Source of the DNA: Eledone cirrhosa
Taxonomy: Eukaryota
Direction of reading: 5' to 3'
Assembly (NCBI GenBank): GCA_964016885.1
Contig: OZ024740.1
Location: 156,178,001-156,242,000, forward strand
DNA: 64,000 nt
In this document: positions 8,141 to 46,307 of the stretch, in pieces
Numbering within the stretch: the stretch's first letter is position 1
How the letters are laid out: every line of letters begins with the position of its first letter
Made by a program: the position numbers and the translations under genes
Notes under the pieces: model-generated
The model's input: the letters and a program-made list of their open reading frames with translations, nothing else
Told to the model about the DNA's origin: nothing
Databases searched by the model: none

Positions 8141-9301
<1,161 letters not shown>

Positions 9302-10303: not shown

Positions 10304-12135
10304 GCACTCCATTCTTTATTATAGTTAAGATTGTGTTTTTTGTGTCAAAAACTGTGTATTGTGTCTACTTTTAGGATGCTGGTGCTTTCTGTGTTTGCTG
10401 TGGTGTTGCTGGAGGTGACGATGGGTTAGATGATAATGTTGGCGGTGGTGGTGATGGTGTAGGTGGTTGTTGGAATGTGGCTGTTGATGGTGATGGCGGT
10501 GGAGTCGTTGGCTTTTTCATTTTTTTTGTTTGTTTTCCAGCTCTTTTTTTTTTGGAGGGCGAAGGTAAGGAGTTCTTTCTTTTTTTTCTTCGCTGCGATG
10601 GTTTTTTCCACCTTTCAACATCATCACACTCCCTCTCCGATTTAGCTATATCGGGAAGGGGCATGCTCTCCATTGTTCTTGTTGGTGCTGTAGTTGGTGG
10701 AGGAGATGGTGTTTTTGTCGTTGGTGCTGGTAATTTTTCTGCCACTGCGGCCTCGAGTCGTTCGGCCACTCCAGCCGCGGGACACAGCGTAAGGAGAAGG
10801 GGGAGCGCGTGCCCGCCTTGGTGAGATTGCGGCAGAAGATCTTAAGATCCTGTCACTGCACCTGTGACACCTTGGGCGCCTACCTTCGACAGTCACAGGT
10901 AGATGGCTACCGTCGTCCAGGTCGATCACATCGGTGATGGTCTCTATGCTCTCGTGGTCTGCTTGGATGATTAGTTCCATCCCCGAGCCTGACCAGTTTT
11001 CCGCATGACGTCTGTGATTGTTGTCGACTCCTCGACGTCAGTGAGGATGGCCGCCATCAGCCAAGCGATCTTCACTGAGGGCGGAACCTGGGTCACTCGG
11101 ACCCTCGTGACTCTCTGGCCTCAGTATGTGGACACCGTCACTATTTCGTCACTGCGGAGTGGCGTAATGTAGTGTGCTCTGTCTTCGGGTGTAGCGAAGA
11201 GAACATCCACCTGTGCCATACTTCGATCCTCGGGCTATGTAGGTTTTCTGTGCCCAGACGGCAACCATAACCCTTTGGACCTGCGACTCGGTCGCTCGTT
11301 CCACTCGGCGCGATTTCAGTCCAATTGTGCTGTAGGAAACCGAACACAAACGCCGGTTTTTCATGAAGTCGGGTGGATGAGTAAGACTTACTCTGTGTCC
11401 GGTTTTTTTTACCAACACCTTGGCCTACCTCATCTCCGTGTCACTGATGTTACAGGTTCGACAGTTTTGGTAGCCTTTGCGAATGATGTAGCTTGGGCTG
11501 CTCCTGTTTGCTGTGTCGATTCGTCGTTACTTTTATTTTTGTTGTTGTTGTTGTTGGTGGTAGTCTTGTTAGTTTTTTTCTTCTGTGTTGCTGCTGTTAC
11601 AATTGTTGTTTGGGTTTTTTCGGCTGTTGTTGTTGTTGTTAAGATGGTGGTGGCGCTGGTGCTAGTGTTGTCTTTGTAATTGATGTAGTTGATTTTTCTA
11701 GCGACGGGAAATTATCGAAATAATCTGGCGCTGTGTTGCTGCTGATAATATTAAAGTCGTTACTGCTGGCGCTGCTGTTTCTACTGTTGTTGTCACTGCT
11801 ACTGCCACTGTTGCTGCTGCTGCTTCTGTTGTTGTTGCTTCTGTCATGTGATTGGACGAAATCGGCTGATCCATTTCCTGAACAACCCGCTGTTCTTACC
11901 TGCGGACAATTTTTCCCGTCCACCATGTTTTTTTTTCAAAACGAAATTGAGGGGGTGTGATTGTAAATAAACACAAATTCAGCCCTTAAGGGCGACAGAT
12001 ACAGTTAAAAAACCCATCTCCACTGAAAGAGGGTTTCTTCAGCTACACAACAATGTATAATATTCTGTATGAAAATTTCATTAACACATAAAAAATCAAC
12101 TGACTTACTGGTCGTAGCTACACACGTCTGGAGAG
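10304..12135 (-). mobile_element. Tx1 copy A, 5' part (5' UTR and ORF1)
   Basis: ORF1 motifs shared with other copies (RRVERATESQVQ, VEGRRPRCHRC knuckle, Pro/Thr-rich tail). Rejoins the ORF1 C-terminus at 3026 once the insertion is removed. Confidence 0.85.
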
Positions 12136-12151
12136 ATAACAATAACAATTA

Positions 12152-15100
12152 TAATAATAGTTTCTTTATTGGCCACAAAGGCTAACACGAAGAAAAACAT
12201 TACAGACGGCACAATGGTACAGGACGATACAATACTAATTGGGTTTTGACCCATGAAAAAAAAAAGGTTATAACAAAAATCATAGAAATGTGTATAAACA
12301 AATTAAAAAATTCAAACAACAAAAATTCCCCAAAAAGGGGGAAACCTCCGAGGGTCACTCGTGGCGAAAACCACACAAAAGACCTCGACTACCCTGATCA
12401 CCAGAGCAAGCACTCTCTCTCACTTTTCCCACTCCTCAGTCTACAGGCGCATACTCAGAGCGGGCCCGTTCACTCGGACCAGACTCTCCACTTTCACCCA
12501 CTTTTCAACAAACTTACTAGAAGACAGCACATGCCTCTCCACCCTGATTTTCCTCTTCAAGTGAAACTTGAAAAAGTTAATCAGGGATTGGCCGGAGAGG
12601 AAAGTCTTCGTCTTTAATCCTTTCAATCTTGTTCACCACACAATCTCTTTCGCCATGGCTACCAGGCAGATGAAAACTGCTTGCCCTTCCTTCTCCTTAA
12701 AGGAGGGTGGTGGACCTATCTGCACAATGGACTCAGTCGATAACCGGATCCGTCCTACTCGCAACAGCAACTGTTCAACATAACAATGCTCGGAGACTGA
12801 ACGAGTGCGTTCACGACGATTTCGTCGCCCTGCGCACATCTGGGACAGGCTCGGCTGACAGCACTTCCGTGTCTGTAGAGCTTATCTCGAACCGGCAACG
12901 CTCCTCGGTACATTCGGGAAATCCAGACGGTATCTGTCAGTTCAAAACGTCTAAGCAGGTTTGTGAGGTCTTTACATCCTTCTCCCCTATCTACTATCCC
13001 CACATAATCCCAGCGTGCATCTAAGATACCGTTCCAGTCGCCCACTAACATTAAAGAGCGGGACGTTCCCAGAAAATTCTCTAGACGTCTTAAGAAATCT
13101 GGCCGACCTGCCCCTGTTGGGGCGTAGATGGCTACTAGCCTGAAAGCATTGCCTTCGCTGCCGGTCACGTCCAGCACCGCCAACTTAGCTTCTGGGTCCA
13201 GGAAGATGGCCCGTATAGCGAGATCGAAGCCTCTCCGAAAAAGCACAGCAACTCTGCCTCCCGCTCCCGTACGGCTGGGAGATGCGGTATACATCATAGC
13301 CGCCGAAGATCGGTGCAAAAGCTCGTGCTTCGGAAATGCTGGTCTCGCTGATGGCTACCACATCTATGTTTAGTGACCTGAGGTCGTTAAGCAGGCGGCC
13401 TTGTTAACAAGATGACCACAGGCCACGTACATTTACACTGCCTATTCTAAGTAAGGCCATGTTGGATGAGGAACGGTGTAAGTGAGAACCGATCACTTAC
13501 CTTGATCGTGTGGAAAAGGGACCGTCGAACCGTCCCTTCGTCCGGTCATGGGTGTCTCCAAGATAATATTCGTGTATATCCTCTTGGTAAGCGACCATCT
13601 GAAGTCCCCAACTGCGTTGGGGAATTTTTGTTTGAACTGTTTGTATTGTTCCAGTTTGAGCTCAACGATTTTTATGTTTTTCGGTAATGTTCTTGGTGTT
13701 GGTGGGGTGTAGTAATTGTTGTCTGTAATGTCTGAGAGTTGCTTTATATGTTCCATGAGTTCTTTATTTGCAATGTTTATGGCTGTGTAATTTTTGGGGT
13801 GGGGTTTGGTTTTGTTGCTGCTGTTGGGTGTGTGTGCCTTGTTGTGTTTGCGATGTTTGTGTTTGTGGTGATGCTGGTGGTGGTGTGATTGTTGTTGGTG
13901 GTGATGCTTGTGGTGGTGGTGGTGTTGCTGTAAGTCGCCTTGAAGCCTTTACACCTGTTTGTTTGCCCTCGCTTTTGGAGTGCGAAGCTAAGGGGTCTTC
14001 CTTTTCTTTTTATAGCAGACCTTTTGCCACTCCACTCCTGCTTCACACTCCATGTCGGATTCCGTGGGGTCTGGGAGGGGTATGAGCTCCAAGGCTGTTG
14101 GTGGTGGTAGTGGAGCCCACTCCGGCGATTTTGTCGCCGGTGTAGCTACTGCGACTGTTGGTGTTGCCGCCACTGCTGCCGCTGTTTTAGTTGTCCGTGA
14201 CCTTGGTATGGGTGCCACGGACGTTGAAGAGTTGTACTCCTTCTTCGAGGTCTATAATGTCCGGGATTGCCTCGATACACAACTGGTTTGTTTTGATTAG
14301 CATTTGCATTCCAATACCTGACCAGTTCTCCCGCTCTATCCTCTGCACTTGCAGCGTGGTCATCCTTTCCTCGATTCCGGCGAGGACAGACGCGGCCAGC
14401 CAAGGTATGGGCACGTTGGGCGGGACCTGGGTCACTTTGACCTTCACAATCTTCTGTCCGCAGTAGGAGGGTACCAACACTATCTCCTCACTCTTTAGGG
14501 TTACCAAGGAGTGAGACTTCGCCTCTTGCAGCGTGGCAAAAAGCACGTCCACAGTGGCATACGTATAGCCTCGGATGATGTGGGTTTTATGTGCCCACAC
14601 GTATCGCAAGGCCTTTTGAATTTGAGCCTCCGCTGCTCTCTCCACCCGATGTGATTTTTTGCTTATCATACGATACGTCACCGTAAGCAGCTGTTGGTCT
14701 TTGAAAAAAATCGGGTGGAGGTTTCAGGGAGATTCGATTGGCTTTTCTAGTCACCATGGCCCTTGCGACCACCATCTTTACATTCCGGACCACCCCCGCA
14801 AAAGAAATGGTCCCTTTTTCAGCGGCACCTTTGTTGCTGCCGCTACTGCTGCTACTGGTCTTGTTGGTGGTGCTGTTGCTACTGCTACTACTGATGTTGT
14901 TGGTGTTGCTGCTGATGCTGCTACTGCTGCTGATGCTGCTACTGCTGCTGGTCTTGTTGTTGGTGCTGTTGCTGCTGCTACCGCAGCTACTGCTGTTCTT
15001 GCTGTTGCTGTTATTGTTTTCAGAATTTTGGCTGTTCCACTCTATGGACAGCTAGCCATTCTGTTTAGCGGTGGTGGTATTGTTGTTATCATTTATGTTG

Positions 15101-15620
15101 TTGCTGTCGTGTGTGTTCATTTTGTTTTTAGTTTCCGTTGTTTCAGTGGTGGTGGTGGTGGTGGTGATGTTGTGTGTGATGTTGACCGCGCCTACCGTCG
15201 TTGTGGTAGGGGTGGAGGCATTCAGCATAGTAAACATTGCAAAGCTGGAAAGTCCGCTTTGTTTTCACGAAATAAATTTGGGTCGCTGCTGCTGCTGCTA
15301 CTGCTGTTCTTGATGTTGCTGTTATTGTTTTCAGAATTTTGGCACTTCCACTCTATGGACAGTCCGCCATTCTGTTTAGCGGACGCAATATTTTTGTCCA
15401 TCATTTTAATCTTCGTAGAAAATTGAGGGGCGTGTTTCAAAAACAAACACAGATTTGGCCCCTAAGGGCTTCAAGTGGAGCAAAAAGAACCATCTCACAA
15501 GGATACTGGCTTACTTAGTTACAAAACAATATCAACATTTCAATGCAAAAGGTTGAATAGCAGTAAAAATAGAACAAACTTACAGGAGCGAAGTGAACCA
15601 CGTCTTGAAAGACTGAACCA
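12152..15620 (-). mobile_element. Tx1 copy B: both ends present, ORF2 internally deleted (EN joined to C-terminal Zn finger)
   Basis: 3' end gcctttgtggccAATAAAgaaac(TAT)n at 12152-12185. ORF2 ATG at 13460; EN motifs LVAIYAP and VGDWN join YRGALPVRDKL at ~12905. ORF1 remnants at 13493-15400. Confidence 0.92.
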
Positions 15621-15659
15621 TGATAATAATAATAAGAAGAAGAACTTGTTAAAGAAACA

Positions 15660-16325
15660 AAAACCAGATGATAATGGAATTACAAAACATTCTAAAGGAG
15701 AACTGGAGAGAATAAATACTCCACGGCCAATATCCCACAAGGTTCAACAGAGCAGATGAAGTCAACAAAGTGAAAGTCAACAATCGCTTAGAAGCCCAAG
15801 ACGAAATGCGGAAACGGAAGGACTGATGTTCACAGCACAAAATCAATGTCTAACCACCAGAGCACAATGAGATAGTTCACCACATCACTTTAGGCCGCTC
15901 ATTCCTAGCTAAGTTTGTATATATAGATAGACATGATAAAGTTGGTAGCTACATCCACTGAACACAATCAGAAATGCCTGTCGAAACTGATAATGAATTT
16001 AAACCAAACTACCTAGACATAACCACCAGGGACTGGAAAATACATATGCATACAGATAGACATGGAAATCCCTTCTGAGCAAAATATTTCCCGAAAAGAA
16101 GTGGAAAATCTGTTTAAATATAAGGATCTAAAAATTTAATATACAATTGTGAAGCATTAAGTTAAAACAATGCTAATAACAAACGTGGTGCAGGGTATGA
16201 TAAAAATAAAGAGAACAAAAAATTAGAAGCCATACCGGGGTACTTTACATTACATAATATCCATAACTAGCTCTGCTAGGAACGGTCCATAGCCTGCACA
16301 AAACATTACCGATTCAATAACAAAG
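15660..16325 (+). mobile_element. 3' fragment of RLE-type non-LTR retrotransposon (R4/Dong-like)
   Basis: Degenerate HHITLG..RHDKVGSYIH, EVE..KYKDL and ALLGT motifs; begins after (TAA)n. Confidence 0.65.
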
Positions 16326-16415
16326 CTCAAATAGAACAATATTCATATATTACCCACAATAAGCACGGAATAAAAAAAAAAAAAAGCAAAACAAACTCAT
16401 ACTCTATAAGATTAA

Positions 16416-16800
16416 TCTCTATATATATATAAACGAAAATGTCTGTCTGTCTGTATGTATGTATGCAGGCGATGCATTTCCACAGTTTCCACCGAATTTG
16501 ATCAAATTTGATACATAGGTTATTTAGCTCCTGGAGCATGTCAACATATAGTTTAAATCTCGCTCACTTCTAAACTAGAAGAGTTCTGGGGCTATTTAAA
16601 AACAGCCATGTTGAGGAGTGGTCTTTATTGAGGAGATAGGGTGGTCTTTCATTCACCATAAACAGAATAAAAACTAAAAGAACTCAAAACGTACATGCCA
16701 ACAGGAGGAATCTATTATACTCACCCAACCCCAACAAAAAAAGAACACACTTTTGCGCACACTTCAAGAACACATGATGTACATAAAACTACTGAAGGAA
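16416..16800 (+). mobile_element. 5' portion of a non-autonomous Helitron-like element
   Basis: A|TCTCTATATATATATAAAC..ATGTCTGTCTGTCTGTATG start resembles the 5' end at 10090-10130; no 3' end found. Confidence 0.5.
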
Positions 16801-16810
16801 CAACAAAAAT

Positions 16811-17035
16811 AATTATTGTTTCTGATTTAGGCACAAGACCAACAATTTTGGGGGATGGGAAAGTCGATTAAATTGACCACAGTGTGTTACTGATACCTTA
16901 TTTTATCAACCCCATGGGCATGAAAGGCAAATCTAACCACGGCGGGATTTGAACTCAGAACGCAAAGAGACGTAACTACATGCCGCAATGCATATTTCTG
17001 ACGATCTACCGATACTGCCAATCCACAGCTACCTA
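16811..17035 (-). mobile_element. tRNA-derived SINE (diverged copy)
   Basis: A box TGGCAGTATCGG, B box GAGTTCAAATCC, core GCCTTTCAT..GATAAAATAAG, tail ..CTTGTGCC..GAAAC(AAT). Confidence 0.85.
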
Positions 17036-17044
17036 CCGTATTAA

Positions 17045-18290
17045 TAATAATAACCGAAGTGTGGTACACTTTCATAAAAGGAGAGAATGCAGTGTTACCT
17101 GGTGGTGAAGTAATGAAAGTTATTGAGGAAAATGGATATAAGTAGTTAGGAAAACTAGAAATAGATACGATCAAAGAGACTGAAATGTAGGCAATTTTTG
17201 GAAAAAATACAATATAATATTGAAATTTGTACTAGAAACATAATTAAATGGAAGAAACAAATTTGTGATAAACATATGACCGATATCAGTAATAAGTTAT
17301 GGAGAAGGTATACTCAGATCGACTAAGGAAGAAATATACAAGTTAGGCAGAAAGACATGAAAAAATAAACCGAGGAAGAAGTATAATAAGCTTTGAAGAA
17401 GGCATAAGAAGTGAAGAGAACAATATGGGATGGCATGTAACAAATAGTTCTGAAGAATTGTTGGTTGGTGTAAAGGTCTCTGGTAGGATTGTGACTACAG
17501 GTTGCATTGATAAGAATTACAAGAGAACCAGAATAGAGGAAATGGAGATATGGTTGTGAGAAAAAATGCAATTACGGACAATTTACAGATTTCATTGTTT
17601 AAAGATTGTTTTTATTTAATGAGGCAATAAGTATTTATGATAAAATTACATAAAAATAATGAAGGATTTAATATTTAGTCAAACATATAGCAAAAGAAAG
17701 TGGCACAGATAGAGGAGTCATAGCGGGGGAAACAAGAAATGTATGTGAAAACTAAATGTAAAGACTGGAACTGAAGCGTTGATCTATCAACACAAAAACG
17801 TGCAGGTAGAACAGATTTTGTGAAATATCGAATGGAATCGCGTCGAATATGAAATCTCCCTTATGTAGACTTTGTAGAGAAAGAGGATAAAAGCATTAGT
17901 AGCAAATTCAGTAAATTTGCACGAAAATATCGTACGCATTGTTATTTGGGAACTATGGCAAATATAATTACCACTAAACCTAGTGAAACATAAACAAAAA
18001 ATAGTTGTAGGATTTCAACATCCAGTAGGATCAAGTGATTGACGTTAGAAAACGAAAAAAACAAAACAAAAAACTATACAGTAATTGATATAGACAAAAG
18101 GGTGTGAAAAAGAACAAAAATGATTGAAATTGGGATAGTGATAGTGGGCACTCTTAGTACAATCACGAAGAAAATGAAATCATTGATGAAAATAATTGGG
18201 GCCAAAGTACTAACAGAACTATTACAGAAAACTGCATTACTAGGAACCGCAAAAATACTGTAGGTACTCAAAAATTGAGCATAAGCCAAA
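17045..18290 (+). mobile_element. R4/Dong-like RLE non-LTR retrotransposon, 3' fragment
   Basis: LPGGEVMKVIEENGYK.LG, NGRNKF..ISVISYG and terminal LQKTALLGTAKIL; follows (TAA)n. Confidence 0.75.
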
Positions 18291-19843
18291 AAAAAAAGAA
18301 AATCATTAATTATAACTTGCTAAGAAGAAAGTAGTTTTTAGGACTTTCGTCCAAGAACGACATGAGAGAGAGAGAGAGAGAAACATGTAAGGCTGTTAGA
18401 AAATTTGAAGCAGAAAGAATGAGCTTGACACGATGGAAAAGGAATGACGAGAGAAAGAAACGGAGTATGTTGTGAGACGGTTACTGAGAAAGCATTACAA
18501 GCGTTAAATACCTACAATTCCTTGCTTTCAGTCGAAAGACGCTATTGTATATATTTTTGAGTATCTGTCATTATTCACAGCTATTGACAAACAAGAAAAC
18601 GGTCGCTCTACTTCCCTTCGTGTTGTAATCCTTCCAGTGACACTTGACGAGAGAGTATTGGTGCTTTATTTTGGCTTTGTTCCGTTTCATTGCCCTCTGC
18701 ACTTTTTTCTCATTATATTTTTCTCCATGTTCCCTTGTAATCCCCCCCCCTCCCCCATATATTTATTTGTTTATAATCCTCTTCTTTCTGGTCTTATTTT
18801 GTTTACTCCTTATCATATTTGTTTATATATATATACATATTACCCACCTTCATATATACGGTAGAAATCGATTCCGGGTAGTCGCCTTGAATGGTTTTCG
18901 TGATTGTAATCTCTTCACCAGATTTATTTATTATATATGTAGAGGACGGACTGGGATAGTCAACTGAAAAATAAAGTAAAAAGAAAATAAGATGAAAGGA
19001 TATTGTCATATGAATATGAAGTCACTTCAATTAAGATATATGACAAACTACTGAACGCACAAATAAAAATGTTCGTTAATTCGATATTTCTGAACATTTT
19101 CTTAATATAAATATTACCCTCCGATCTGTATTATTTAGATACACCGCAATAACCCCTAGGAAATATGTACAAGATCACTTTGTCTGCTAGAAATACCAGC
19201 TGATGTTCCGTTTCAACCATACCATAATGCTTAAAAAGGGACACTGTAATATATATATATATATACATTTTCATAGAATTGTAGTATTTTTTAGCACGAA
19301 GGGTAATTGTAAACAACTGGATTCTATATGTATAGTAAAAAGTCGGGTTAAGATATAACCACATATTGAACAAAGAGCGGGAGAGAAAGGAAGAAAGAGA
19401 GTTTAAAGTATGAGATGAGAAATGAGAGGGGTATAGAGAGAGGAAAAAGAGGAGAGGAGAAAAGCAGAAATGAGACCGATGGAGTAGAACTTTTGGAGAA
19501 TTGCGAAAAAGGATAAAAAGAATGGAGAAAGGATGGGGTAAGTAAACTAACAAGAAAAATAGAACTTTAGCGTCATATGAATCATCAACTTCTTTCAAGA
19601 CTAACATAGTTTCTCGCGGGATATTGGCTGTTTCAATTGATGAAATTGTAAGTACTTTAACGTTTTTCCTATGTTAATCTGCCGATACAATAATTACATT
19701 GCTTTCATAGATTTAGTTCTCAGGCTGGGATGTGGTTGAACAATTACTTCTTTGCGTATGCTACAAATGAATTTGTTGAGCAAATTGTAAACAACAAGAT
19801 CGAAATCCCTGGATATCGATCTAAACCCATATTATTATTATTA

Positions 19844-19960
19844 CTAGCAGAAAAACTACCCTTCAGGTGGTTTTCTGCTAGCATATGTAGTGTGCATATT
19901 GGTATTATACACAAATATATATGCTTATAGATATATGTAAATTGAACAGTAAATTGACAA
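19844..19960 (-). mobile_element. Helitron 3'-terminal fragment (same family as 3025 end)
   Basis: ctagcagaaaaactaccc..ggtggttttctgctag hairpin plus ~100 bp homologous to 3025-3130. Confidence 0.75.
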
Positions 19961-19962
19961 TA

Positions 19963-20640: not shown

Positions 20641-20849
20641 TCACGCAATGTGTATGTGTGTTTCTGTGAATGTATGTGTGTGTAAAAGGAAGGAAAGGGA
20701 TACACACATATATGTCTCTAACTTAAAAAACAGTGACACACACACACGTGTCTCTAATTTAAGAACGCCGACAAACTCACGCGCACGCACATATACACAC
20801 TGTCCTATTACCACTCAAGAGCTTTGGCTCGGGCAAATATCCCCTCAAT

Positions 20850-20946: not shown

Positions 20947-21496
20947 TTATATTAAATGAGTTTTAAATAAAGAGTTAATAAATAAATAAAACGTTATACT
21001 TGTTTTACCCTCCCATTTCCAATTCACCGAACGCTGCTATTATGACTGTATGTGTGTGTTTGTATATGCGTGAATGTATGTGTGAAAGTATGTGTGAATG
21101 TATGTGTATTTGTGTGAATGTATGTCCGTGAGCGTGTATTTTTATAAGTTTGTGTTTGCGTGATTATTGTTATATACTCATAATAGTTATATACTCATAC
21201 ATATAGATGTATGTATGTGCCCAATCATATGCGTCAGCGTGTAGAAAATCATAATCTGTCTATCTCTTTCATCACACACTCTCTCTTTTTATATATATAG
21301 TAGTTGAAGTGGTGATGGTAGCCACGATATACAGGAAGTGTAGACATTTGAAACTTTGAAAAGAAGTAAATTTTAATTTATCTGTTTACGAAATTTAGTA
21401 GATACATTATGTAATATTCATTCATTATTTATTCAAAGTAATCTAATTTATTTTACTAACTTTATCATAGTTTAAATTATTATTATTATTATTATT

Positions 21497-21900
21497 GTGG
21501 ATTGGCAGTATCGGTAGAGGGTCGGACACCATGCTTTGAAGCATAAAGTTACCTCCCTTTATGATCTGAGTTCAAATCCCGCTGAGCTTAACTTTGCCTT
21601 TCATCCTTACGGGGGTCGATAAAATAAAGTACCAGTAATGTATTGGTTAATTGCAGGCCTTGTGCCAAAGGTAGAAACAATAGTTATATATATATAAAGG
21701 GCGTTGGATTGGCAGTATCGGTAGAGGGTCGGACGCGATGTTTTGACGCATAGAGTTAAGGCCCTTACCATTCTGAGTTCAACTCCCGCCGAGGTTAACT
21801 TTGCCTTTGATCCTTACGGGGTCGATAAAATAAAGTACCAGTAATGCACTGGGGTAATTGCTGGCCTTGTGCAAAAAGTAGAAACAATTATTATTATTAT
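21497..21900 (+). mobile_element. Two tandem tRNA-derived SINEs (core resembles Deu/Nin-type domain)
   Basis: Units at 21497-21682 and 21698-21900, each with A/B boxes, AACTTTGCCTTT(C/G)ATCCTTACGGGGTCGATAAAATAAAGTACCAG core and GGCCTTGTGC..GTAGAAAC tail; the second ends in (ATT)n. Domain name is from recall. Confidence 0.9.
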
Positions 21901-22083
21901 TGGTTTGATAGGACGTCTTTTTGATCGCTCTATTTACTTGTTATAATTATTTGTTGTTAATTTGTTCTTGTTGTGTAAGTTATATAAGCCCTTGGACTTT
22001 ACCCTGTGAAGGGGAAAGTATAATATTTGGGCCTTTTGGCCCAAATATTTGAACATTTTACTTTTTAAAATTATAAAAAAAAC

Positions 22084-24064
22084 ATGGCTGAGCCACGCCC
22101 CCCAGCTATATGTCTGCTGTCGTGTGACAACGGCTAAAAGTTGAGAGGAGGGTTACAGAAATTGATACAACAAACACCACCACAAGCAACGTGAACAAAG
22201 ACAACAATGACAACAACACTGAGAACACTAATTTTGAAAAAATTACCACACTAACTACAACAATTAGTTAAATACCATTCTTTCATCTGATACAACACAA
22301 TAAAGACTAAAGTGTTTAAAAAAAAAAAATTATGTTGAAGACTACAACAATAACAGCGACAACAAAAATACAGACAACATAAAAAAATGACAACAAATGC
22401 AACAACGATATTAACACAACTAACAAGAAAATAAACAACGACAACACCAACAGCAACAAGAACAACAACTACGGTGGAAGCAATAACACCAACAACACGA
22501 CCAGTAACAGCAGTAGCAGCAGCAATAATGGTGCCGCTTAAAAAGGGACCACTTCTTTCGCAGGTGTGGCTCGAAATATAGAAACAGTGCTAGTCACGGA
22601 GGGGGAGATGGCAGTCGCAAGGGCCATGGTGACAAGAAATGATAATAGAGTTTCCCTGAAACCTCCACCCGATTTTTTCAAGGAGTAGCAGCTACGCACG
22701 ATGACTTACCGCGCCGTAAGCAAAATGTCACATCGGGTGGAGAGAGCCACAGAGGCTCAAATCCAAAAGGCCTTGGGGTGCGTCTGGGCGCGCAAAACCC
22801 ACATCACCCGAGGCGAAAAGTATGCCACAGTAGACGTACTTTTCGCCACCCACCAAGAGGCGAAGTCTCACTTTTGGAAACCCTAAAGAGTGAAGAGATA
22901 GTCTTGGTGCCTTCCTACTCTGGGCGGAAAATTGTGAGGGTCAAAGTGACCCAAATCCCGCCGCGTCCCTTGGCTGGCCGCGTCTGTCCTAACTGGAATC
23001 GAGGACAGGACCACCATACTGCAAATACAGAGAATGGGAAGAGAGAACTGGTCAGGTATAGGCGTGCAAATGCTAATACAAACTGACGAGGAGTGTATCG
23101 AAGCCATCCCAGATATCATAGACCTCGAGGAAGGAATCCAACTCCCTATAAGCGTGGAAGGAAGGCGTCCAAAGTGCTATCTCTGCGGGCAAAAGGGTCA
23201 CATCAGGGCCTTTTTCCAGCAGAAGACAGCCAAGAAGAGGCCCCTTCCCTCCTTCCGACACCTGATCCGCTGCTACCAAGAGCAGGGCAGGCAACAGAGA
23301 CAGAAGACTCTTCCACGGTGAGTAGGAGGGCAATGTCCATGGTACCCATACCAAGGCCACGGACAACTAAAACAGCGGCAGCAGTGGCGGCAACACCAGT
23401 AGCTACATTTGGAGTAGCTGCACCAGCAACAAAATCACCGCAGAGTGCTATACTACCACCACCAACAGCCGTGGAGCACATACCCCTCCCAGACGCCACG
23501 GAATCCGACATGGATTATGAGGCGGGAGTGAAGTGGTAAAAGGTCTTCCACAAAAAAACAAAAACGAAAGAACCACTTAGCTTCGCCCTCCTAAAGCGAG
23601 GACAAACAAAGGGTAAAGGCTGCAAGGCGACTTGCAGCAACGCCACCACCATCACCACCACAAGCACCACCACCAACAACAACCACACCACCACCAGCAT
23701 CACAAACACAACAAAGCACACACACCCAACAAGAAAAAAAGCAACAAACCACCCTCCCCTCAAAAAGTACACAGCTATAAATATTGTGCACCAAGGACTA
23801 ATGGAACATATAAAACAGCACACCAATATTTCAGACGCAAATTACCACACCCCACAGACACCAAGAACATTACCACAAAATATTAACATTGTGGAAATTG
23901 AACTCGAAGATTACAAACAAATAAAACGAAAATTCCCCAACGCAGTTGGGGATTTCAGATGGTCGCTGTCCAAGAGAATCTATACAGATATCATCTTGGA
24001 GACACCCATGACCAGCCGAAGGGACGGTTCTACTGTCCATTCCCCACATGATCAAGGTAAGTGA
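22084..24064 (+). pseudogene. Tx1 ORF1 (Asn/Thr-rich N-terminus, putative RRM-like core, CCHC knuckle, Pro/Thr-rich C-terminus)
   Basis: VEGRRPKCYLCGQKGHIRAF knuckle; homologous segments in copies A, B, D and E; stops and frameshifts. Confidence 0.85.
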
Positions 24065-24095
24065 TCCTTTCTCACTTATCCTGTCCTCACCCAGC

Positions 24096-27000
24096 ATGGC
24101 CGTACTTAGAATAGGCAATGTAAATGTACGTGGCCTGAGGTCATCTTGGAAGCAAGACCACCTGCTCAACGACCTCAGGTCACTAAACATAGATGTGGTG
24201 GCCATCAGTGAGACCAGAATCTCTGAAGCATGAGCCTTCGCACCGATCTTCGGCGGCTACGATGTATATGCATCTCCCAGCCGTCCAGGATCGAGGGAAG
24301 GAATTGCTGTGCTTTTTCGGAGAGGCTTAGATCTCGCCATACGGGCCATCTTCCTGAACCCAGAAGGTAAGTCGGTGGTGCTGGACGTGAGCGGCAGCGA
24401 AGGCAATGCTTTCAGGCTAGTAGCCGTCTATGCCCCAACAGAGGCAGGACGGCCAGATTTCTTCAGACGTCTAGAGACCTTTCTGGGAACGTCCTGCTCT
24501 TTAGTGTTAGTGGGCGACTGGAACGGTATCTTAGATGCATTATGTAGGGCTATTAGACAGGACAGGAGGGTGTAAAAGCCTAAACAACCTGCTCAGACGT
24601 TTTGAACAGTCTGACAGGTATAGACTGGATTGTCCGAATGTGTCAATGTGGACATGGGCAAACTGCATCGGGTCATCCAGATCGTATTTAGATAGGGTAT
24701 TCTGTAGGGAAACAGATAAGGCTGTCCACAATTTATAGTAGTCGACTACACTAACCACAAATGTGTGATCTGCGAAGATGACTTAGATAGACTCCATAGG
24801 CAAAGGCCCGGTTACTGGAAGCTGAACGCGTCGTACCCGGCGCGCAAAGCTTACAGAGACTGGATTAGCGAATTAATTTTAACATTACGTTGACGGGTGC
24901 GATCGTCAACAACAGGGGGTGGTTTACCCTGAAAAGGGCTATTAGAGTAGAATCGATAAGGTCTAGCAAAGGAGTAGTGATAGAGGAAAATAGAGTAGAG
25001 GGAGAGTTAATTAGAAAGCTTAGAAGAGGCGTTTAGGACAGGCATCGCAACCGACATGCTTGCGGCGAGATTGGCACTCGACCAATTCTTCAATGCAAAG
25101 CACAAAGGCTGCGTTGTCAGAGCTAGAGCGCGTGCTCTAAGACTTGAGGGGACGAAAGCCGTTGAATGGGCCCGGGTGGTAGAGGCGCGACGTGACAACA
25201 AGTCCACAATTCGGTCTTTGCCTGATCAAAACGGGCGCATGTCGCTCGAACCCGTACAGATGTGTGCGGCTTTTCAACAGCACTTTGCTCCAATTTTCAG
25301 GAGCGGCGGCGGGCCGGATCGGAGTATGGTCTACGGTGCATACCTCGACGGACTGCCGCGGCTCTCGATGACAACAGCGCATTGCTGCGAAAAGCCGATA
25401 ACAACAGGTGAAATACGGGAAGCGATGTCTGACTGCACGAGGAGTAAATCGCCAGGTTTGAATGGTCTGCCCTACGAGCTTTATGTGTATATGCCAGACT
25501 TGTTCGGCGACCTCTTGGCAGATGTCTACTGCAACTGGCAGCAGAACGAGAGCATTCCCAGTTTTGTGATCCGGGGAGCGGTGGCGCTGCTGAGAAAAGA
25601 CCCGAACAAGGTGGACGTTATAGACAACTTCAGGCCCATAACTCTGCTAAACACAGAGTCTAAGATTTTGGCCAAGGTGTTAGCAAAGAGACTGGCGCTT
25701 GTTGTCGGTTATCTGGTGGGAGAGGCGCAGATATGCGCAATTCCGGACAGATCCATCCACGACAACCTCCATCTCATGCGATACATCATAGAGAGGGTGG
25801 TTACGAAACCTGGCACGGGTGGGGCCCTGATCAACTTGGATCAATCTAAAGCATTTGATAGGGCTGACCATCAGTACCTGGCTGCAGTCCTCGAGGCGGC
25901 CGGCATCGGCCCCGTTTTTAGGGGCCGGATCGCTGCGATGCACAGTGACATTTGCTCGATTGTGAGGGTAAATGGTCACCTGTCGCAGTCATTCAGCATC
26001 TTGCGCCCTCTTGTACATATTGGCCCTCGAGCCGTTACGGCTCAAATTGGAGACGATGAGGGGGGGGGGGGGTCATACGCGAACTGGGATGAGGGAGATC
26101 CGTGTCAGCTTACGCCGACGACGTCACCGTGATGGTGTCGAGCACCAAACACGTTCAGATGCTCGGCGCCGCTTTCAAGGAATACGAAGCGGTGACAGGA
26201 GCAAAAATAAACCAGGAAAAGTCGGTGAGCTTGCAACGGCACCTGGAGAGGAAAGTCCATGCCGTCCGACAGTGTGGTGGGGCGCTGGACGGAAGGACCG
26301 GTTGAATTGCTCGGGGTCTGGTTCGGTCCGGACCTCCAGATAGAGAAAAACTGGAGCGAGGTGACAAGCAGGGTGCCCTCTCTCACACAGAAATGGGCCG
26401 AGAGAACGCTGTCTCTGAAAGGTCGGGTGAAGATGGCGAATGCGTACATAGCGTCCCTCATCTGATACCGCCTGACCGTCGTACCTTTCCCCCGCCCAAC
26501 TCTGACCAAAATGGAGCGCCTTCTCTTCCTCTTTTTGTGGAAGGGACGTGCTCCCATGTTCAGACGATCCATCTGCTGACGGTGAACAGGTGTGGAGCCG
26601 TTTGCCAGACGCGCTTTTCCCCAGCTCGTCTCGTTGACGGAGCTGCAGTCCTGGATCAGGAAAAGACCGAGGGATAACCTTGGAAGCTGGAATGTCGCTA
26701 AGCGCCCTCTACCAGCTGGGCACTAGTATCGGTGGAACATCCACCTCGGCGTTCTATAGAGGGCTAGTGGAGGGGAAGAGCAACAACTTTCTCGTGGAGA
26801 CCCTGGGCGTAGAAGACGATCAGCTGTTCGCTCTCTTCAAGAGAACTTTCTGCCCAGGGCCTATGGACAACTTCAAGAAATCCCTGGTCTGGCAGTGCTA
26901 CCGGGGAGCGTTGCTGGTACGGGATAAGCTCTACAAGCACGGAGGTGCTGTCAGCCGAGCCTGTCCGAGATGCGCGCAGAGCGACGAAACCGTCCTGCAC

Positions 27001-27304
27001 GCACCCGTTCAGAGTCCATTGTGCAGATATCCCCACGATCCTCCTTTATGGAGGAGGAAGGGCAGGCAGTTTTCATTTGCCTGGTGACCATGGCAAAAGA
27101 GATTGTGTGGTGGACAAGGCTGAAAGGGTTGAAGACGGACACTTTCCTCTCCGGCCAATCCCCGATTAACTTTTTCAAGTTTCACTTGAAGAGGAAAATC
27201 AGGGTGGAGAGCAAGTGCTGTCTTCTAGTAAGTTTGTTGAAAGGTGGATTAAAGTGGCGAGTCTGGTCTGAGTGAACGGGCCCGCTCTGAGTATGCGCCT
27301 GTAG
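24096..27304 (+). pseudogene. Tx1 ORF2 (APE endonuclease, reverse transcriptase, Zn finger)
   Basis: NVNVRGL, AISET, VGDWN, SYLDR, PGYWKLN, FRPITLLN, DQSKAFD, AYADD, CPRC..ETVLH. Confidence 0.93.
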
Positions 27305-27575
27305 TGTGAGGAGTGGGAAAACTGAGAGAGGGCGCTTGCCCTGGTGGTGAGGGTGGCCGTGGTTTTTGTGTGGCTTTCGCCACGAGTGACCCTCGGAGGT
27401 TTCCCCCTTTTTGGGGAATTTTTGTTGTTTGAATTTTTTGATTTCTATCCCGATTTTGTTATAACCTGTTTACATAAACAAAACCCACTTTGTATCGTCC
27501 TGTACTGTTCTGTGCCGTCTCCACTGGTTTTCCTCATGTTAGCCCTTGTGGCCAATAAAGAAACCATTATTATTA

Positions 27576-27685
27576 CCTGAGTTCAAATCCCGCCGAGGTC
27601 GATAAAATAAAGTACCAGTAATGCACTGGGTAATTGCTGGCCTTGTGCCTAAAGTAGAGACAATTATTATTATTATTATTATTAA
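27576..27685 (+). mobile_element. Partial SINE between Tx1 copies C and D
   Basis: B box, core remnant, tail and (ATT)n. Confidence 0.85.
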
Positions 27686-30600
27686 TGGCTGTCAGTCAGT
27701 AAAGACGTTTTTCTGGAGCTCCGCAAAAGTAGGCAATTTTCTGTTCATTTTCATTTATAATAATTGTTGTATTCTTTGAAAAGGGTCGTAAGACTCCCGC
27801 CTTTGCCCTCTGAAGGGGTGACTGTGTAATATTTGGCCCAAATATTTGAACTTTTTTGTATTTTAAAAAATTCTCGAAAAAAACAAAACAAAAAAAATCA
27901 CGCCCCCCAAATTTAAATCTGCTGTCATGTGATAGCAACCTAAATGTTGAGAGGAGGGAAGCGGCAAACACATTGATCTATAGTACAAATACATTTAGCA
28001 ACACCACCACAAATAGCATAAACAGTTGCAGCAGCAACACCAATAGTGAGAACAATAACCTTAAAAAAAAAAGAAACAACAATAATACCAACCACAGCAG
28101 TAACAGTGACAACCAAAAGACAGACAACAGAAATGATGACAACAACGAAATTAACACCACTAACCAGAACATAAACAGCACCAACAGCGACAATACCAAC
28201 TGCACCGAGAACAACAACAACGACGGCACCTAAGATATAACCAACAGTGATAAAAGCAACAAGAACAACAACACCAACGACAACAACAAGTACACTTTCG
28301 TTGAGGCAGCAGCCAAAAAATGGTCATGCTTCAACATGGACTTGACAGACAAGGAGACAAAGTTGGCCCAGGCATGGAAGCTCATCAAACAGGAACAAAC
28401 CTGGGCCAACTTAACGGTCCCGGCAGAAGCCATATAAGCGGTGGAGAAGAGAACTCTGGTCTTCAGATGCATCTCAGCTGAGACGAAAAGAGCCACAAAC
28501 TCTCTAAGCAGACGTTGAGGCTGCGCTGAGGTGCATCAGGGGAGATACAGAGTTCGTAGCGAGGGGTCGACAGTACGGCACCATCTCGGTGCTGTTTAAG
28601 TCGGAGGCCCTTGCTTTGAAGCACTCGATGACCCCTTGCAAAACCAGCAAGGTTATTATGTACCCCTCCCATATGGGAAAAATAATGATTAGAGTCCGTA
28701 TTTCCAGGATTCCACCTGGACTAGATATGTGGTGGCTCTTGGGATGCGTGATTGTGGAAGGGTCAGATGCCGTCTCAATAGATGTAACCAGGACACGAAA
28801 AGGGGACTGGTCCGGGATTGATCTGGAGATACTTCTCCAGATCAAGGGGTGACTGCATAATATTTGGACCTGTTGGCCCAAATATTTGAAATTTGTGAAA
28901 AAAAAAAAATTTCGAAAAAACAACAACAACAAAAAACATGGCTGAGACACGCCTCCCCCCTTCTCAGTCTGTCAGCGACCTAAACGTTGAGAGGAGGGAA
29001 ACGGCAAACACATTAATTTATACTACAAACACATTTAGCAACACCACCACAAACAACATGAACAACTATAGCAATAACTGTTTAAAACAACAACAACAAC
29101 AGCAATAGCTGCGACAACTAAAAGACAGACAACAGAAATAATTACAACAAAAACAACAACGAAATTAACACCACTAACAAGAACATAAACATTGACACCA
29201 CCAACAGCAACAATACCACCTGTACCGAGAACAACAACAACGGTACCAAAGATATAACCAACAGCAACAACACCAACAATAACGACGACGACAACAACAA
29301 AGGCAACACCAACAACAACGACAACAACACCAAGAACGACGACAACACCAACAACGATATAGTCAACGAAAAACAGCAAAACAGTAACAACAAAAAGAAC
29401 AACAACAGCATCAACAAAAAAGTACTTTCGCGGCAACAGTAGCAAAAAGCCAAAGGCTGTACGATTTCGATCTTACGGAGAAAAAAGAACGTTTGGCCCA
29501 AGCGGAAAAAATTATAACAAGAGAGAAAGGCTGGGCCAATTTAAACGTCCTGGCAGAGGTAATGGCAGCAAAGGAGAAGAGAACTTTAAAATATCGATGC
29601 ATTTCAGTCAAATCTGAAATGCGTCGGTAACGACGAAATAGACCATATAACAAGGGCCAGACAGTTTGGGAGCATCTTGGTGCTTTTCAAAACTGAGGCC
29701 CTTGCTATAAAGCATTCTGTGGTCCCTTGCAAAACGGACCAAATCATTCTGTACCAGTCCTACACGGGGAGGAGAACAATAAGGGTCCGTGTTCTCAGGA
29801 TTCCACCAGGACAGGATTTATGGTGGCCCCCTGGGATGCGTGGCGGTAGAGGGCCCTGACACCCTCCTCGACGTTAAATTTATAAAGAGAGAGTGAAAGA
29901 TGGTCTGGAACTGGTTTGGAGATTCTTCTCCAAATCAGACCTGAAGACATAAAAAAAACATACCGGACAACATCAAACTACAGGACGGGTATGAAATCTA
30001 GGTAGTCACGGAGGGCAAATGGTCGCGTTGTTTCGTGTGTGGTGAAGCAACACACCTGAGAGCTTTTTGCCCCAATTTGAAAACTGCAGGGGCCGCAAAC
30101 CTCCGTTGCTGCCAACACCGGTGTCGGGAGGAGGGACAACACCAGCAGCAAGAGTAAAATGAAACAGCGCCATTAACAAGGACAATTAAATCCACCCAGG
30201 TGGTCGCTGAAACAAGCTCTCCTTCTCCACCTCTTTCAAACACATACACACAGAGCAAAACGCACACACCCGTAAACACACTCCAACTCCCCTCTGACAC
30301 AGAGTCCCCAGATACCGGGTTCCTCCATTTCTCCGAGTGAAAATGAGGGGCAACCCCAAAACCCCAAAAGAAAGCACAAAAAGAAAACGAAGAATCCAGT
30401 TCCACACACACAAAAAGTACGCAAAACACCCACAGCAAATACAGACACACCCACAGCAACACCAACTCCACAACCGCCATCAACACCGGCACAAGCACAA
30501 GTCATCCCAAACAAAAGAAAACACACGCAGATACCAACAACAACAGACACACCAAACTTCTTGTTACTAAAGAGGGCCAACAAACAACTATTGGCCCTTG

Positions 30601-31233
30601 TAACATGAAGTAAAGACATTGAGAAAGAGGGAAAGATTTTTGGCACCAGCACCCTCAAAGGGCCCCAAATACTGCGATTGGTGCGGATGCCAATGTAAAC
30701 TTATAAAGATATTAGGGAGAGCTTTCCCAACTTCGTGGGAACCCCTAATGTAAAAGCCACGAGTAGGCTGCTACAGGGGTTCACAATGGAAATCCCACCA
30801 ACGATAGAGGTCAAACCACTCGACCTCCACAAGACTCCGGAAGGTAAGTAAACATTTCCTCTCTCCTTTAGCCTACCAACATGGCCATATTAAGAATAGG
30901 ATATTTAAATGTGCGTGGCCTGGGGTCATCCTGGAAGCAGGGTCACCTGCTCAACGACCTCAGGTCTCTAGAAATGGATGTAATTGCCGTCAGCGAGACC
31001 AGGATTTCCGACACGCGCGCACTAGCCCCCATTTTCGACGAGTATCAGATCTTCGCATCTGTTAGTCAGCCAGGATGGGAGGTGGGGTGGCAGTGCTGTT
31101 TAGGAAAGGCCTGGATCTCGAGGTAAAGTCGATCTGCCGGGACCCGAACGGTAAGTTGGTAGTCCTGGACGTGAACAATAGCGAAGGTGGTGCCTTTAGA
31201 CTTGTGGCCGTCTACACCCCTAAAGGGGCCGGA
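27686..31233 (+). mobile_element. Tx1 copy D: doubled 5'UTR/ORF1 start, truncated in EN domain
   Basis: 5'UTR motif aaggggtgactg..aatatttgg at 27812 and again at 28844. ORF1 ends GK* at ~30851; ORF2 ATG at 30881 (MAILRIGYLNVRG). Confidence 0.88.
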
Positions 31234-34200
31234 CGTTCATCCAGCGCCCAATGATGCTGTTGAACAGCATGGACTTGCCTCTCCAGGTGCCGATCTGCAA
31301 GCCCATCCACTTTTCCAGGTTAAGTTTTCATATTCCTTTCATATTCCTCCAATAAGTTGTCGACTTATTGTCGGAGAGAGGACATCCTCGTGCAGCCGTC
31401 AAGGGCATCCTGAATTTCAGCTGAAGTTATCGGCCTTTCGCGGCTCTCAGCGTCGGCCATCGACAGGCACGGCAAGCCGTCGAGGTGGGAACTGAAGTCC
31501 GCAACCGTCTCTGACCAGCCAATCCCGCCGAACAACCGAGCAAAATGCTGGCAAAAGGCCTCACACATCCGCATGGAATCGCTCAGCACGTGTCCGTCTC
31601 GGTCCGTCAAAGACCGAATTGTAGTTTTATTACCACACTGCGCCACTGCCACGCGGGCCCATCAAAAAGCTTTGGTTCCCTCGTTTCTCAGAGCACGCAC
31701 CTTAGCTCTGACAATGCTACCTTCGAGTTTCGCATTGAAGAAATGGTCTAATGCCATTCTCGCCGCTAGCACGTCAGTTGCAATGTCACTACAAATGGCC
31801 TCGTCTAACTTATCTACCAGCTCCCCCATCCTTTCTATTTTTCTCTAACGCTACTTCTTTCCTAAACCCTATCGAAATTACTCTGATCTCTCTTTTGAGA
31901 GCCCCTCGCCCCACCACTGTTGTTGACCCCCCCCCCCGTCAACTTTTGCTTAACTAAATTGTTGACCCGGTCTCTGTAAGCCTTACGTGCCGGAAACGAC
32001 ATGTTCGGCTTCCAGTAACCAGGTCCTAACCTACGCGTCTTATCTAGGTCGACCATACAGATCCCAAACTTGTGATCTGAATAGGTCTTAAAACGTAAAC
32101 AGCCTAAACTATTTCTATCTATTTTCATTATGAAAATCCTCTCTATGTACGATCTAGATGTCACTATGCGGTTGATCCAGGGCTACACTGGCGCATTAGG
32201 GAAGTCTAGTCGCTACCTGTCAGACAGTTGGAACTGGCTGATTAGGTACTTGAGGCTTTTGCCCCGCTCCTATCAGCTGCTCCCACACAATCCCAGCGTG
32301 CGTCTAAGATGCCATTTTACTCGCCCGCTAATAGTAAAGGGCGAGACGTACCCAGAGAAGCTTCCAAGTGCCTAAAGACTATCGTTCGTCCGGCCCCGGT
32401 AGGGGCGTAGACTGCCACCAGTCTAAAGGCACCACCTTCGCTATTGTTCACGTCCAGGACCACCAACTTACCGTCCGGGTCCCGGAAGATCGACCTTATC
32501 TCGAGATCCAGGCTGCCCCGCACCATTCCTAACAGACTAACATCGAAAATGGGGGATAGTGCGCGTGTGTCAGAAATCCTGGTCTCGCTGACGGCAATTA
32601 CATCCATATCTAGAGACCTGAGGTAGTTGACTCTTTTCCAAGGGCGACCCCAGGCCACGAACATTTAAGCATCCTACTCTTAATATGGCCATGCTGGCAA
32701 CCTGAAAGAGAGAGAGCGAAGGTTTACTTACATCCCGGGGGCTTGTGAAGGTCGGGTAGTTCGACTTCCATGGTTGCTGGGGTTTCTTTCGGGAATTCCT
32801 TTAAAAGTTTCGATGTTGGTTTCAAGTTCGGAGTACCCACGTCCTGAGGAAAGCTCTCTCGAAATTCCATTGTAGGAATCGAGCGACATACGCACCAGAA
32901 ACAAATCTTCCGGCATGAAAATGTGCTCAATTAAAAAATCTCCACCTCTGTTTGAATTTCTTTGCTTCGTGCTAAGAGGGCCATCAATTTCTCTTTGGCC
33001 CTTCTGACAAGCACGAAGTATTTTATGTTTTGCTGGTGCAGTTTTATTTGTTTGCGTTTGGGCGACTGTGATGTTGATGGTTTTGTTGGTGTTGTTTCGG
33101 GTATGTCTGTGTTTGTTGTAGGTGTGGTGTCTGTAATTTCAGGTGTCTGTGTGTTTATTTGTTCTTGTGTCTGTTTAATTTGTTTGCGTTTGGGGGATTG
33201 TGGGAATGGTGTTGGTGTTGGTGTTGTTGGGGAAGTGTTTACGTTGTTGGTGTCTGTAGTTTTTGTCGTGGGTGTTTTTGTATTTTGTGGGGGCTTTTTC
33301 TTTGTGTGTTTTCTTTTTTGCTTTTTGGTGGATTTGGGTTTTCCCTCATCTTCACTACTGGAATATAACGGGTCTGTGGCTGTAAGTGTATCTGTGTGCG
33401 TTTATGTTTTTGTCCATGTGTATATATTTAGGGGGAGGAGGAATGGGAGAGCTTTCCTCGTTTTCCCCTAGGTTAATTTTGGTGGTGGTTAGACTGTTTT
33501 TGCTGTTGGCGGGGCTGCCGGTGTCAGTGTTGGTGGAACTTTCCATGCTGGCACTGGCGTTGGCAGCAAAGGAGGTTTGCGCCCCCTGCATTTTTGAACT
33601 GAGAGCAGAAGGCTCGCAGATGCGTTGCTTCACCGCAGACGAAGCATTGCGGCCTTCCTCCCGCAGTAATCAACTGAATCATTGTCTTGTTATGCAAGCG
33701 GACAACGTCCGGGATGTTATTTAGGTCTTCTGGTTTTATTTGGAGAAGAATGTCCAAATCTATCCCGGACCAGTCTTCTCTCTCTGTCTTTTTGATATCT
33801 AGGAGGGTAGTGTCTGTCCCCTCCTCGATTACACATCACAGGTGCCACCATAGATTTATTCCTGGTGGGATCCTAGAAATGCGGACCATCACTCTTTTTT
33901 CGCTCATGTAGGACGGGTGCATAATGATTCGTTCTGTTCCGCAGGGAGGGGGGGGGGGCATTGAGTGCTTAATAGCAAGAGCCTCGGTTTTGAACAGTAC
34001 CGAGATGGTGCCGAACTGTCTGGCTCTTGCTTTGTATTCAATATCATCTTTAATGCATTCCAAAGCAGCCTCAACTTCTGCCTGGCTGGCGAATTACACC
34101 TTGCGAGTCTGCACCGAAATGCATCGAAAATGTTAAGTCCTCCTCTGCATAGTCGCTATTGCTTCGTCCGGGATGGTTAGGTTGGCCCAAGATTTCTCAC

Positions 34201-34845
34201 GTTTAATTAATTTCCACGTCTGGGCCAACTGTTGCTCCTTGTCTGTAGCAATGACCTTAAAAAATCGTTTTGTATTCGCAACCGCCGCCGTGAATGTGTT
34301 GTTTAGTTTGTTGCTGCTCTCACTGTTGCTGTTGTTGTTGGTGTTGTTATTATTGTTTTGTTTGTTGTTGCTGCTGCTACCGTTATTAATGTTTATATTG
34401 AGGCTGTTGATGGTGTTGTTGTTGTTGTTGAAGGGATAATGGCAGTGGTGGTGACGGTGTTTGAGGTGGCCAAGTGGAACGCTTACTGTTTATAGTTCCC
34501 TTTCCTTGTATCATTTTCTCACATGCAGCAGCATTGACCACAGTCGTATCACAAATGTCTGTGGTAGTAGTAGTAGTAGCAGTAGTTGCAGTTTTTAACC
34601 TTTTGAACAGCAAGTTAAATTCTTTCATGTTTTTTTTTTTAACATGATTTTTCAAAGTTTTTAAAAATAAATCTGAATAAAGCCCGAATATTTGAAAGTT
34701 CTCCCTTCCTGGGAGCCAAGGTGGTTACCGTATGCCCCGTTATCAACAACACAATACACAATGTAACACTTTAAAACAACTTAAAATTATGAACCTTTTC
34801 TCTCGCAGACTTGTAACGTCTTCACACATGTGCGAATAACAAATA
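31234..34845 (-). mobile_element. Tx1 copy E: 5' intact, 3' truncated and internally deleted
   Basis: ORF1 with RPQCFVCGEATHLRAFC; ORF2 ATG at 32692; GPGYWK; deletion at ~31370 joins the pre-RT linker to the post-RT region. Confidence 0.9.
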
Positions 34846-34857
34846 ACAATGATAAAA

Positions 34858-35038
34858 ATAACTGTTTCTACTTTAGGCACAAGGCCAGCAATTACCCAGT
34901 GCATTACTGGTACTTTATTTTATCGACCCCGTAAGGATGAAAGGCAAAGTCAACCTCGGCGGGATTTGAACTCAGATCGTAAAGGGACGTAACTATGCTG
35001 GAAAGCATGGCGTCCGACCCTCTACCGATACTGCCAAT
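34858..35038 (-). mobile_element. tRNA-derived SINE
   Basis: A/B boxes, core and tail; its tail runs into the Tx1 copy E 5' end. Confidence 0.9.
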
Positions 35039-35059
35039 AAAAATAACGAAAGCAAGTTA

Positions 35060-37356: not shown

Positions 37357-37357
37357 A

Positions 37358-46242: not shown

Positions 46243-46307
<65 letters not shown>

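Follow-up and report, generated by a model that had tools for sequence, protein, structure and literature searches.

Insertion into microsatellites has been described for several Tx1 families of long interspersed nuclear elements (LINEs), with Kibi found in (TC)n, Koshi in (TTC)n and Tx1 families of crocodilians in (TTCC)n/(TTTC)n (Kojima 2015, PMC4494074; PMC3812793; these and the other papers are represented here by excerpts). In Octopus vulgaris, short interspersed nuclear elements (SINEs) make up 11.6% of the assembly and most of the recently active ones are unclassified, while Dong-R4 LINEs are abundant (PMC13282606). No partner LINE for octopus SINEs is named in the literature covered, the excerpts of that paper included. 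Here we describe a stretch of 64,000 nucleotides from the octopod Eledone cirrhosa (the window, G000:C1:156178001-156242000 of the 3.0-Gb genome) in which Tx1-like LINE copies, SINEs and (ATT)n tracts lie side by side. Judging from its sequence, the window is quite probably a pile-up of Tx1-like copies of several ages inserted into (ATT)n on a fixed strand, with the SINE likely to be a passenger of the same enzyme and not a promoter.

Five copies in the window, A to E, have differing 5' ends and each retrieves its own genomic relatives, indicating five separate subfamilies. For each of these old subfamilies 40 matches were scored and the best 29 loci other than the copy itself were kept (145 loci in all), with self-matches removed ahead of all counts. 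Young copies came from a protein search of the genome with 150 scored matches, from which 40 were fetched, 38 of them picked for open frames of 1195-1204 aa; one lacked a 5' end, leaving 39 young 5' junctions. A hexamer in ATT phase was found at 129/145 old junctions (C 28/29, D 29/29, E 25/29, B 23/29, A 24/29) and at 39/39 young ones, all in one phase, compared to 5.1% of 20,000 random 36-nt windows. Strand-specific (ATT)n targeting, as put forward in the original prediction from the window alone, is thus seen genome-wide, and the strong ATT enrichment of the 5' flanks is what that prediction had expected. A target-specific Tx1 family is recognised by a single type of sequence in over 20% of its flanks, and both junction sets show this, whereas (TC)n or (TTC)n, the targets of Kibi and Koshi, was not the target, (TTC)n standing right at the junction once (L145). 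LINE copies truncated in open reading frame (ORF) 2 or the 3' untranslated region (UTR) are also preceded by ATT in 17/33 cases, so the tract is the target and not merely a part of the element. In young copies the median number of perfect ATT units is 9 on the 5' side (at least 6 in 37/39) and 16 on the 3' side, and the target duplications of the 37 young full-length copies outside arrays are all pure ATT, their length and extent being unreadable. A truncated copy on the minus strand (L070) directly follows a telomere-like (CCCTAA)n repeat with one base triplet in common, and a short repeat of this kind lies near L278.

It is possible, if doubtful, that transcription of the full-length LINE begins within the upstream tract and gives the RNA a 5' (AUU)n leader, in which case the 5' tract would be partly made by the element and the target perhaps just ATTAT. 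The single phase of all young 5' junctions and the six or more perfect units in most of them are what a leader would give, as are the 9/20 copies selected by their 3' end that are 5'-complete (L201-L220), a high proportion for a LINE. However, six units also fit the common SINE duplication length of 17-19 bp, and truncated, leaderless copies often follow long pure tracts too. Such a leader would modify targeting of (ATT)n and is compatible with it.

The SINE, present at a density of ~160 copies per Mb, has a preference for ATT that is strand-specific and weaker than that of the LINE. ATT phase was found upstream of 36/91 random SINEs against 71/1060 local windows, with the opposite phase at 3/91. 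Non-repeat target duplications flank 26/67 random SINEs and 0/67 shifted controls, and over all loci 89/270 SINEs (control 8); most are 10-20 bp and 47/89 start with ATTAT. The duplication starts directly at the SINE end, so the SINE "tail" is largely target. The suggestion that a SINE tail provides a fresh target did not hold, as the SINE adds nearly no tail (44/52 random SINE ends have 0-2 perfect ATT units). In Rfam the SINE had no match beyond chance, and none to tRNA up to E 10; its head has motifs resembling polymerase III boxes by eye, measured against what we take to be the consensus. Three SINEs stand in tandem at 54640-55061 of the window, and at L144 SINE 3' ends form a tandem array of 65 bp.

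The 3' ends of SINE and LINE align over ~27 nt at an equal distance from the tail, around a five-base CUUGU loop. At pair 2 of the hairpin, 148/163 SINE ends have G-C and 93/104 LINE ends have C-G, and pair 3 in LINE ends is G-C in 58 and A-U in 36. In a covariation test of 10 sequences, two compensatory pairs were found with 96.7% of cells paired; 0/500 shuffles attained the observed covariation score and slid controls were lower. The two elements also have a common insertion signature, with ATT phase on the same strand and ATTAT-led duplications in SINEs and in one truncated LINE. Of the four features expected of a stringent SINE-LINE pair, the fourth being hairpin-dependent mobilisation in trans, the first three are present: a common 3' end, a stem-loop with compensatory pairs and a common insertion signature. 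The common end and hairpin together with the ATTAT start site make it likely that the SINE uses the enzyme of the Tx1-like LINE. We consider it unlikely that only the LINE seeks ATT and the SINE is moved by another LINE with an ATT end (RTE or CR1/L2), the hairpin being ancestral or due to chance. Such a partner would agree with the shortness of the common stretch, with the short sites taken by the SINE where the LINE prefers long tracts, with CR1, L2, RTE and Nimb being the usual SINE partners (PMC3747384, PMC11481361) and with the correlation of RTE 3' repeats with duplication starts (PMC6007223). However, loop, tail spacing and compensatory pairs are common to SINE and LINE, of the 14 SINE-type stems that lacked a recognised SINE body, 12 were judged by eye to be variants of the SINE (two lay in other context), and the Dong-like element described below has a different end and the opposite phase.

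Beyond the tract, we compared the upstream neighbours of the LINE copies with those of 81 random (ATT)n tracts of at least 3 units. A SINE end was found upstream of 46/129 old copies, 4/39 young copies and 11/81 random tracts, a LINE tail upstream of 24/129, 17/39 and 2/81, and an opposite-strand Dong-like element upstream of 16/129, 6/39 and 3/81, with other sequence at 43/129 old and 12/39 young copies. The labels are automatic and their errors were kept in these counts: L297 is not a SINE, the SINE of L287 lies ~30 nt off, L307 and L308 have a downstream LINE, null "Tx1_int" rows are low-complexity matches, and several flanks labelled "other" resemble Dong ends or additional Tx1 subfamilies. 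LINE tails are enriched upstream of both old (p 4e-4) and young copies (p 3e-8), supporting the idea that LINE tails feed further insertions, whereas the enrichment of SINE ends is confined to old copies (old vs young p 0.002). Insertion specifically into SINE and LINE tails, as originally predicted, goes too far, neither being upstream of 59/129 old and 18/39 young copies. The Dong-like element has a single 1145-aa ORF without an apurinic/apyrimidinic endonuclease (APE) domain, ends in (AAT)n and is nearer R2 than L1; its label further relies on what we assume to be Dong-type C-terminal motifs. Two young copies 2 Mb apart (L281 and L285) have a common 366-bp upstream Dong-like fragment and truncation point with differing downstream flanks. 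A third abundant (ATT)n-ending element, without the CUUGU hairpin, serves as target at L074, L104, L218, L221, L223 and L314.

In 9/17 young tandems, identity between the young copy and its upstream neighbour does not exceed 95.3%, compared to 99.4% among the peers of the young copy; the upstream neighbour is thus clearly older, which indicates insertion into an existing tail. L307/L308 and L309/L310 are two arrays, so that 17/39 young tandems equals 15/37 independent cases; the 4 young arrays read were covered for 7 kb each, short of their upstream ends. There is a small chance that tandem arrays arise mainly by unequal recombination, read-through dimers or assembly error. Pointing that way are the identical imperfect spacer of L307 and L308, the 6/17 upstream neighbours that are at least 99.1% identical, and the near-identical upstream partners of L271, L276 and L282; against it, the nine older neighbours are mostly mutually distinct and the window's own copies belong to five subfamilies. 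Beside tail insertion, the remaining young tandems may be duplications or dimers.

The order of insertion can be read in six of the 46 old cases with a SINE before the LINE (L038, L054, L087, L088, L123 and L172, two with one mismatch), where the SINE duplication holds 4-10 bases of the LINE 5' end, so that the LINE was there earlier and the SINE came second. In the other cases, two duplications are weak or ambiguous and the remainder are pure ATT or none was detected. The reverse order, seen as a split duplication, was found in none of 9 two-ended copies with an upstream SINE, and judged by age the LINE likely inserted after the SINE at L304 and L305. In the window, every SINE has the same orientation as the LINE it is paired with; at E, the SINE carries an 11-bp duplication of its own, and at C and D the insertion order is not fixed. 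That LINE and upstream SINE move together, with the SINE as promoter, is very improbable: although C, D and E each have an upstream SINE, and SINEs are in excess at old copies over random tracts (p 4e-4), young intact copies are mostly SINE-free (4/39 with a SINE automatically, 2 clear by eye), the duplications read, that at E included, enclose the SINE alone and not SINE plus LINE (six taking in LINE bases), upstream SINEs vary in subtype and truncation point, SINEs are roughly as common downstream (8/29), and runs of T4 or longer, which stop RNA polymerase III, lie 17-55 nt into the LINE at every 5' end examined, with 23 such runs in one young copy.

We infer that ORF2 nicks just ahead of ATTAT and primes on the AUU end of the RNA. 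The long-tailed LINE RNA would favour long perfect tracts through RNA-DNA pairing, and the median of 16 units left at the 3' side would be the best target for the next copy. The SINE RNA would be recognised via the common CUUGU hairpin and be mobilised in trans, landing at short ATTAT sites and in LINE-flanking tracts, where it would duplicate 10-20 bp and add little tail. A Dong/R4-like LINE may use the same tracts from the other strand.

Several observations weigh against this explanation. The junction sets are top-scoring matches and no random samples, and the truncated LINE copies without upstream ATT (16/33) may reflect later deletions or boundary errors. Automatic counting gave 4 LINE duplications against 3 in the control, and just one LINE had a clean non-repeat duplication (L017, a truncated copy; the duplication is of ATTAT type and encloses the LINE alone). 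The hairpin has just 3-4 pairs with a stability like that of shuffles (z -0.27 to 1.43), a different fold is adopted by one SINE end, and in the pair counts the loop was preset by the search pattern and the swaps represent about two evolutionary events. The partner screen covered, among LINE clades, the Tx1-like LINE and one Dong-like element. About 40 of the 46 old SINE-upstream cases leave the order unfixed, and L307/L308, which repeat the same non-ATT spacer, and three upstream neighbours that are 98.7-99.1% alike are perhaps not fresh insertions.

The young family is ~6.05 kb long with a median identity of 99.4% and has a 699-aa ORF1 and a 1139-aa ORF2, and many of the 150 scored copies have open frames of 1195-1204 aa. 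ORF1 has one CCHC knuckle, at 374, with no Pfam match and no significant match to P0087; a separate ORF1 bearing such a knuckle is typical of Tx1. The intact ORF2 of L272 matches PF03372, PF00078 and PF13966, in an arrangement of APE, reverse transcriptase (RT) and C-terminal CCHC. Its best solved relative is L1 ORF2p (E 3e-52; R2 at E 1e-21), and its nearest named relative is a protein of Argonauta hians (73%). RT identity is 36% to a protein automatically named TX1 and 28% to a group read as classical-L1-like, and in a quick RT tree the family stands on its own branch beside unnamed proteins. With an APE-RT-CCHC ORF2 and a separate CCHC-bearing ORF1, the family is Tx1-like within the L1 group as far as its sequence goes, and the label stops there because the tree was made without curated Tx1 references and its backbone is unsettled. 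Dong/R4 elements have a single ORF and no APE domain; with their two ORFs and APE domain, copies A to E and the young family do not belong there. Most old C-type copies are two-ended with differing internal deletions of 0.1-2.7 kb (L181-L220). At 49309-50840 of the window, (TCTA)n/(TTTC)n repeats hold a further Tx1-like copy, which is truncated at the 5' side and has a different 3' end, representing a sister lineage with another microsatellite target.

The copies in the window (Table 1) were located by tblastn with intact ORF1 and ORF2 and by blastn. On reading the sequence, the five junctions first described for A to E are real. The starts of C and D fit those given earlier, and E starts 11 nt from its predicted 34845; all five copies said to lie within 35 kb are there, with a sixth at the window edge that had been overlooked. 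The tail of B does abut A, and the 5' end of B abuts (TAA)n at 15621-15635, a tract (placed at 15622 before) that weak Dong-like fragments beyond it likely account for. ORF2 and 3' UTR sequence covers 26% of window positions 1-35040, compared to 2.2% of 56 random 10-kb loci (560 kb) from nine large contigs.

Table 1. Tx1-like copies, (ATT)n tracts and SINEs in the window
Feature	Position	Strand	Basis
Sixth Tx1-like copy; ORF1 end and ORF2, 5' part lost, 3' UTR past window edge	1..3022	-	tblastn with intact ORF1/ORF2, blastn
Copy A; 5' UTR and partial ORF1, 3' part gone, ~7 family bases absent from the start, left edge approximate	10330..12137	-	
Degenerate (ATT)n tail of copy B, abutting A	12138..12159	-	
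Copy B; both ends kept, RT region deleted (join near 12910)	12160..15620	-	
3' hairpin of copy B, one-base loop variant	12172-12182	-	
(ATT)n followed by (TTC)n, upstream of B; (TAA)n as read on the + strand	15621..15644	-	
Fragment of a decayed Dong/R4-like LINE, directed away from B, same tract in opposite sense	15645..15960	+	weak tblastn, E 0.014 and 0.032
(ATT)7 upstream of SINE pair	21476..21496	+	
Two SINEs in tandem (21497-21681, 21700-21886); hairpin of second SINE at 21863-21873	21497..21886	+	
(ATT)5 linking SINE and copy C	21887..21901	+	
Copy C; full-length, decayed, ORF1 with CCHC knuckle	21902..27565	+	
Short (ATT)n tail of C	27566..27575	+	
5'-truncated SINE separating C and D	27576..27662	+	
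(ATT)n linking SINE and D, one substitution in ATT run	27663..27686	+	
Copy D; two 5'/ORF1 parts joined near 28845 (duplicated 5' part), ends within endonuclease region	27687..31235	+	
Copy E; 5' end to mid-RT, fused directly to D	31236..34834	-	
Degenerate 28-nt ATT tract between E and SINE	34835..34862	-	
Downstream copy of 11-bp target duplication of SINE at E	34852-34862	-	
SINE upstream of E	34863..35036	-	blastn
Upstream copy of 11-bp duplication, SINE alone enclosed	35037..35047	-	

Both ends are kept only in B and C. ORF2 of C is of the APE-RT-CCHC type with stops, frameshifts and small deletions, and this copy has T5 at +17 and its 3' hairpin at 27542-27552. D and E face each other, joined at 31235/31236, and the 3' ends of A, D and E are absent; the truncation of A, B, D and E would, as part of the explanation we favour, be due to later deletions. 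The 5' UTR starts at 21902, 27687, 34834, 15620 and 12134 are unrelated, yet have a common GACGT-like motif 5-20 nt inside, from which the young family differs. A possible promoter role for an AGACG motif common to the old 5' ends was considered and set aside. Elsewhere in the window there are a Helitron-like region with PIF1 helicase (3500-7450), a 1.1-kb (TA)n-rich array with TAAA interruptions at periodic spacing (8189-9305), a long terminal repeat (LTR) retrotransposon whose RT is decayed and whose 412-bp LTRs are 94.7% alike (36949-42011), and two inverted copies, 65% alike, flanking a coding remnant without Pfam match that is presumably Penelope-like, going by its motifs (44742-48061). 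Two near-perfect palindromes (61456-62086 and 62209-62578; 99% and 96%) represent a fold-back element or an assembly artefact.

What the window adds is insertion order, as bases caught in duplications give a way to order insertions, and local LINE pile-ups can be explained as a product of targeting. In the literature searched, in which Repbase and Dfam were not covered, neither an (ATT)n-targeting Tx1 nor a SINE-Tx1 pair of octopus was seen; new here would be the (ATT)n target and the probable SINE passenger, microsatellite-targeting Tx1 and Tx1-driven SINEs being known already. On balance, we lean towards a Tx1-like lineage, active in an animal, in which the tail doubles as the target; it would recognise its RNA by a CUUGU hairpin and drive the dominant octopod SINE. 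The length of the RNA tail would set that of the target, with long tracts for the LINE and short ATTAT sites for the SINE, and the ordered stacks, in which an opposite-strand Dong-like element takes part, would be the work of a single enzyme. Because the candidate partner has many intact copies, the question of partnership is directly testable.

Compared to the known systems, the family resembles Kibi, Koshi and the crocodilian elements as a Tx1-type LINE with a microsatellite target, far above the 20% flank criterion in PMC4494074, and is unlike them in its (ATT)n target, its octopod mollusc host and a tail that is its own target. The Dong elements targeting (TAA)n use the same repeat (PMC3812793), whereas the Tx1-like LINE uses the opposite strand. 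As with SINEU and Tx1-Mar (PMC4494074), the SINE is ascribed to a Tx1 family through a common target, with a weaker preference in the SINE, and SINEs stand in tandem by sequential insertion. In contrast to SINEU-1, for which the excerpted text reports that no common 3' end was found, the octopod SINE and LINE have a 3' hairpin in common, and their target is a microsatellite, not Mariner (PMC4494074). The common 3' stem-loop with compensatory pairs in the L1 group is like that of maize ZmSINE2/3 with LINE1-1_ZM and of Chlamydomonas SINEX-3 with L1-1_CR (PMC3472496, PMC3747384). L1-group SINE-LINE tail pairs have been counted as three (PMC3747384), to which the octopod partnership, if true, would add an animal case.

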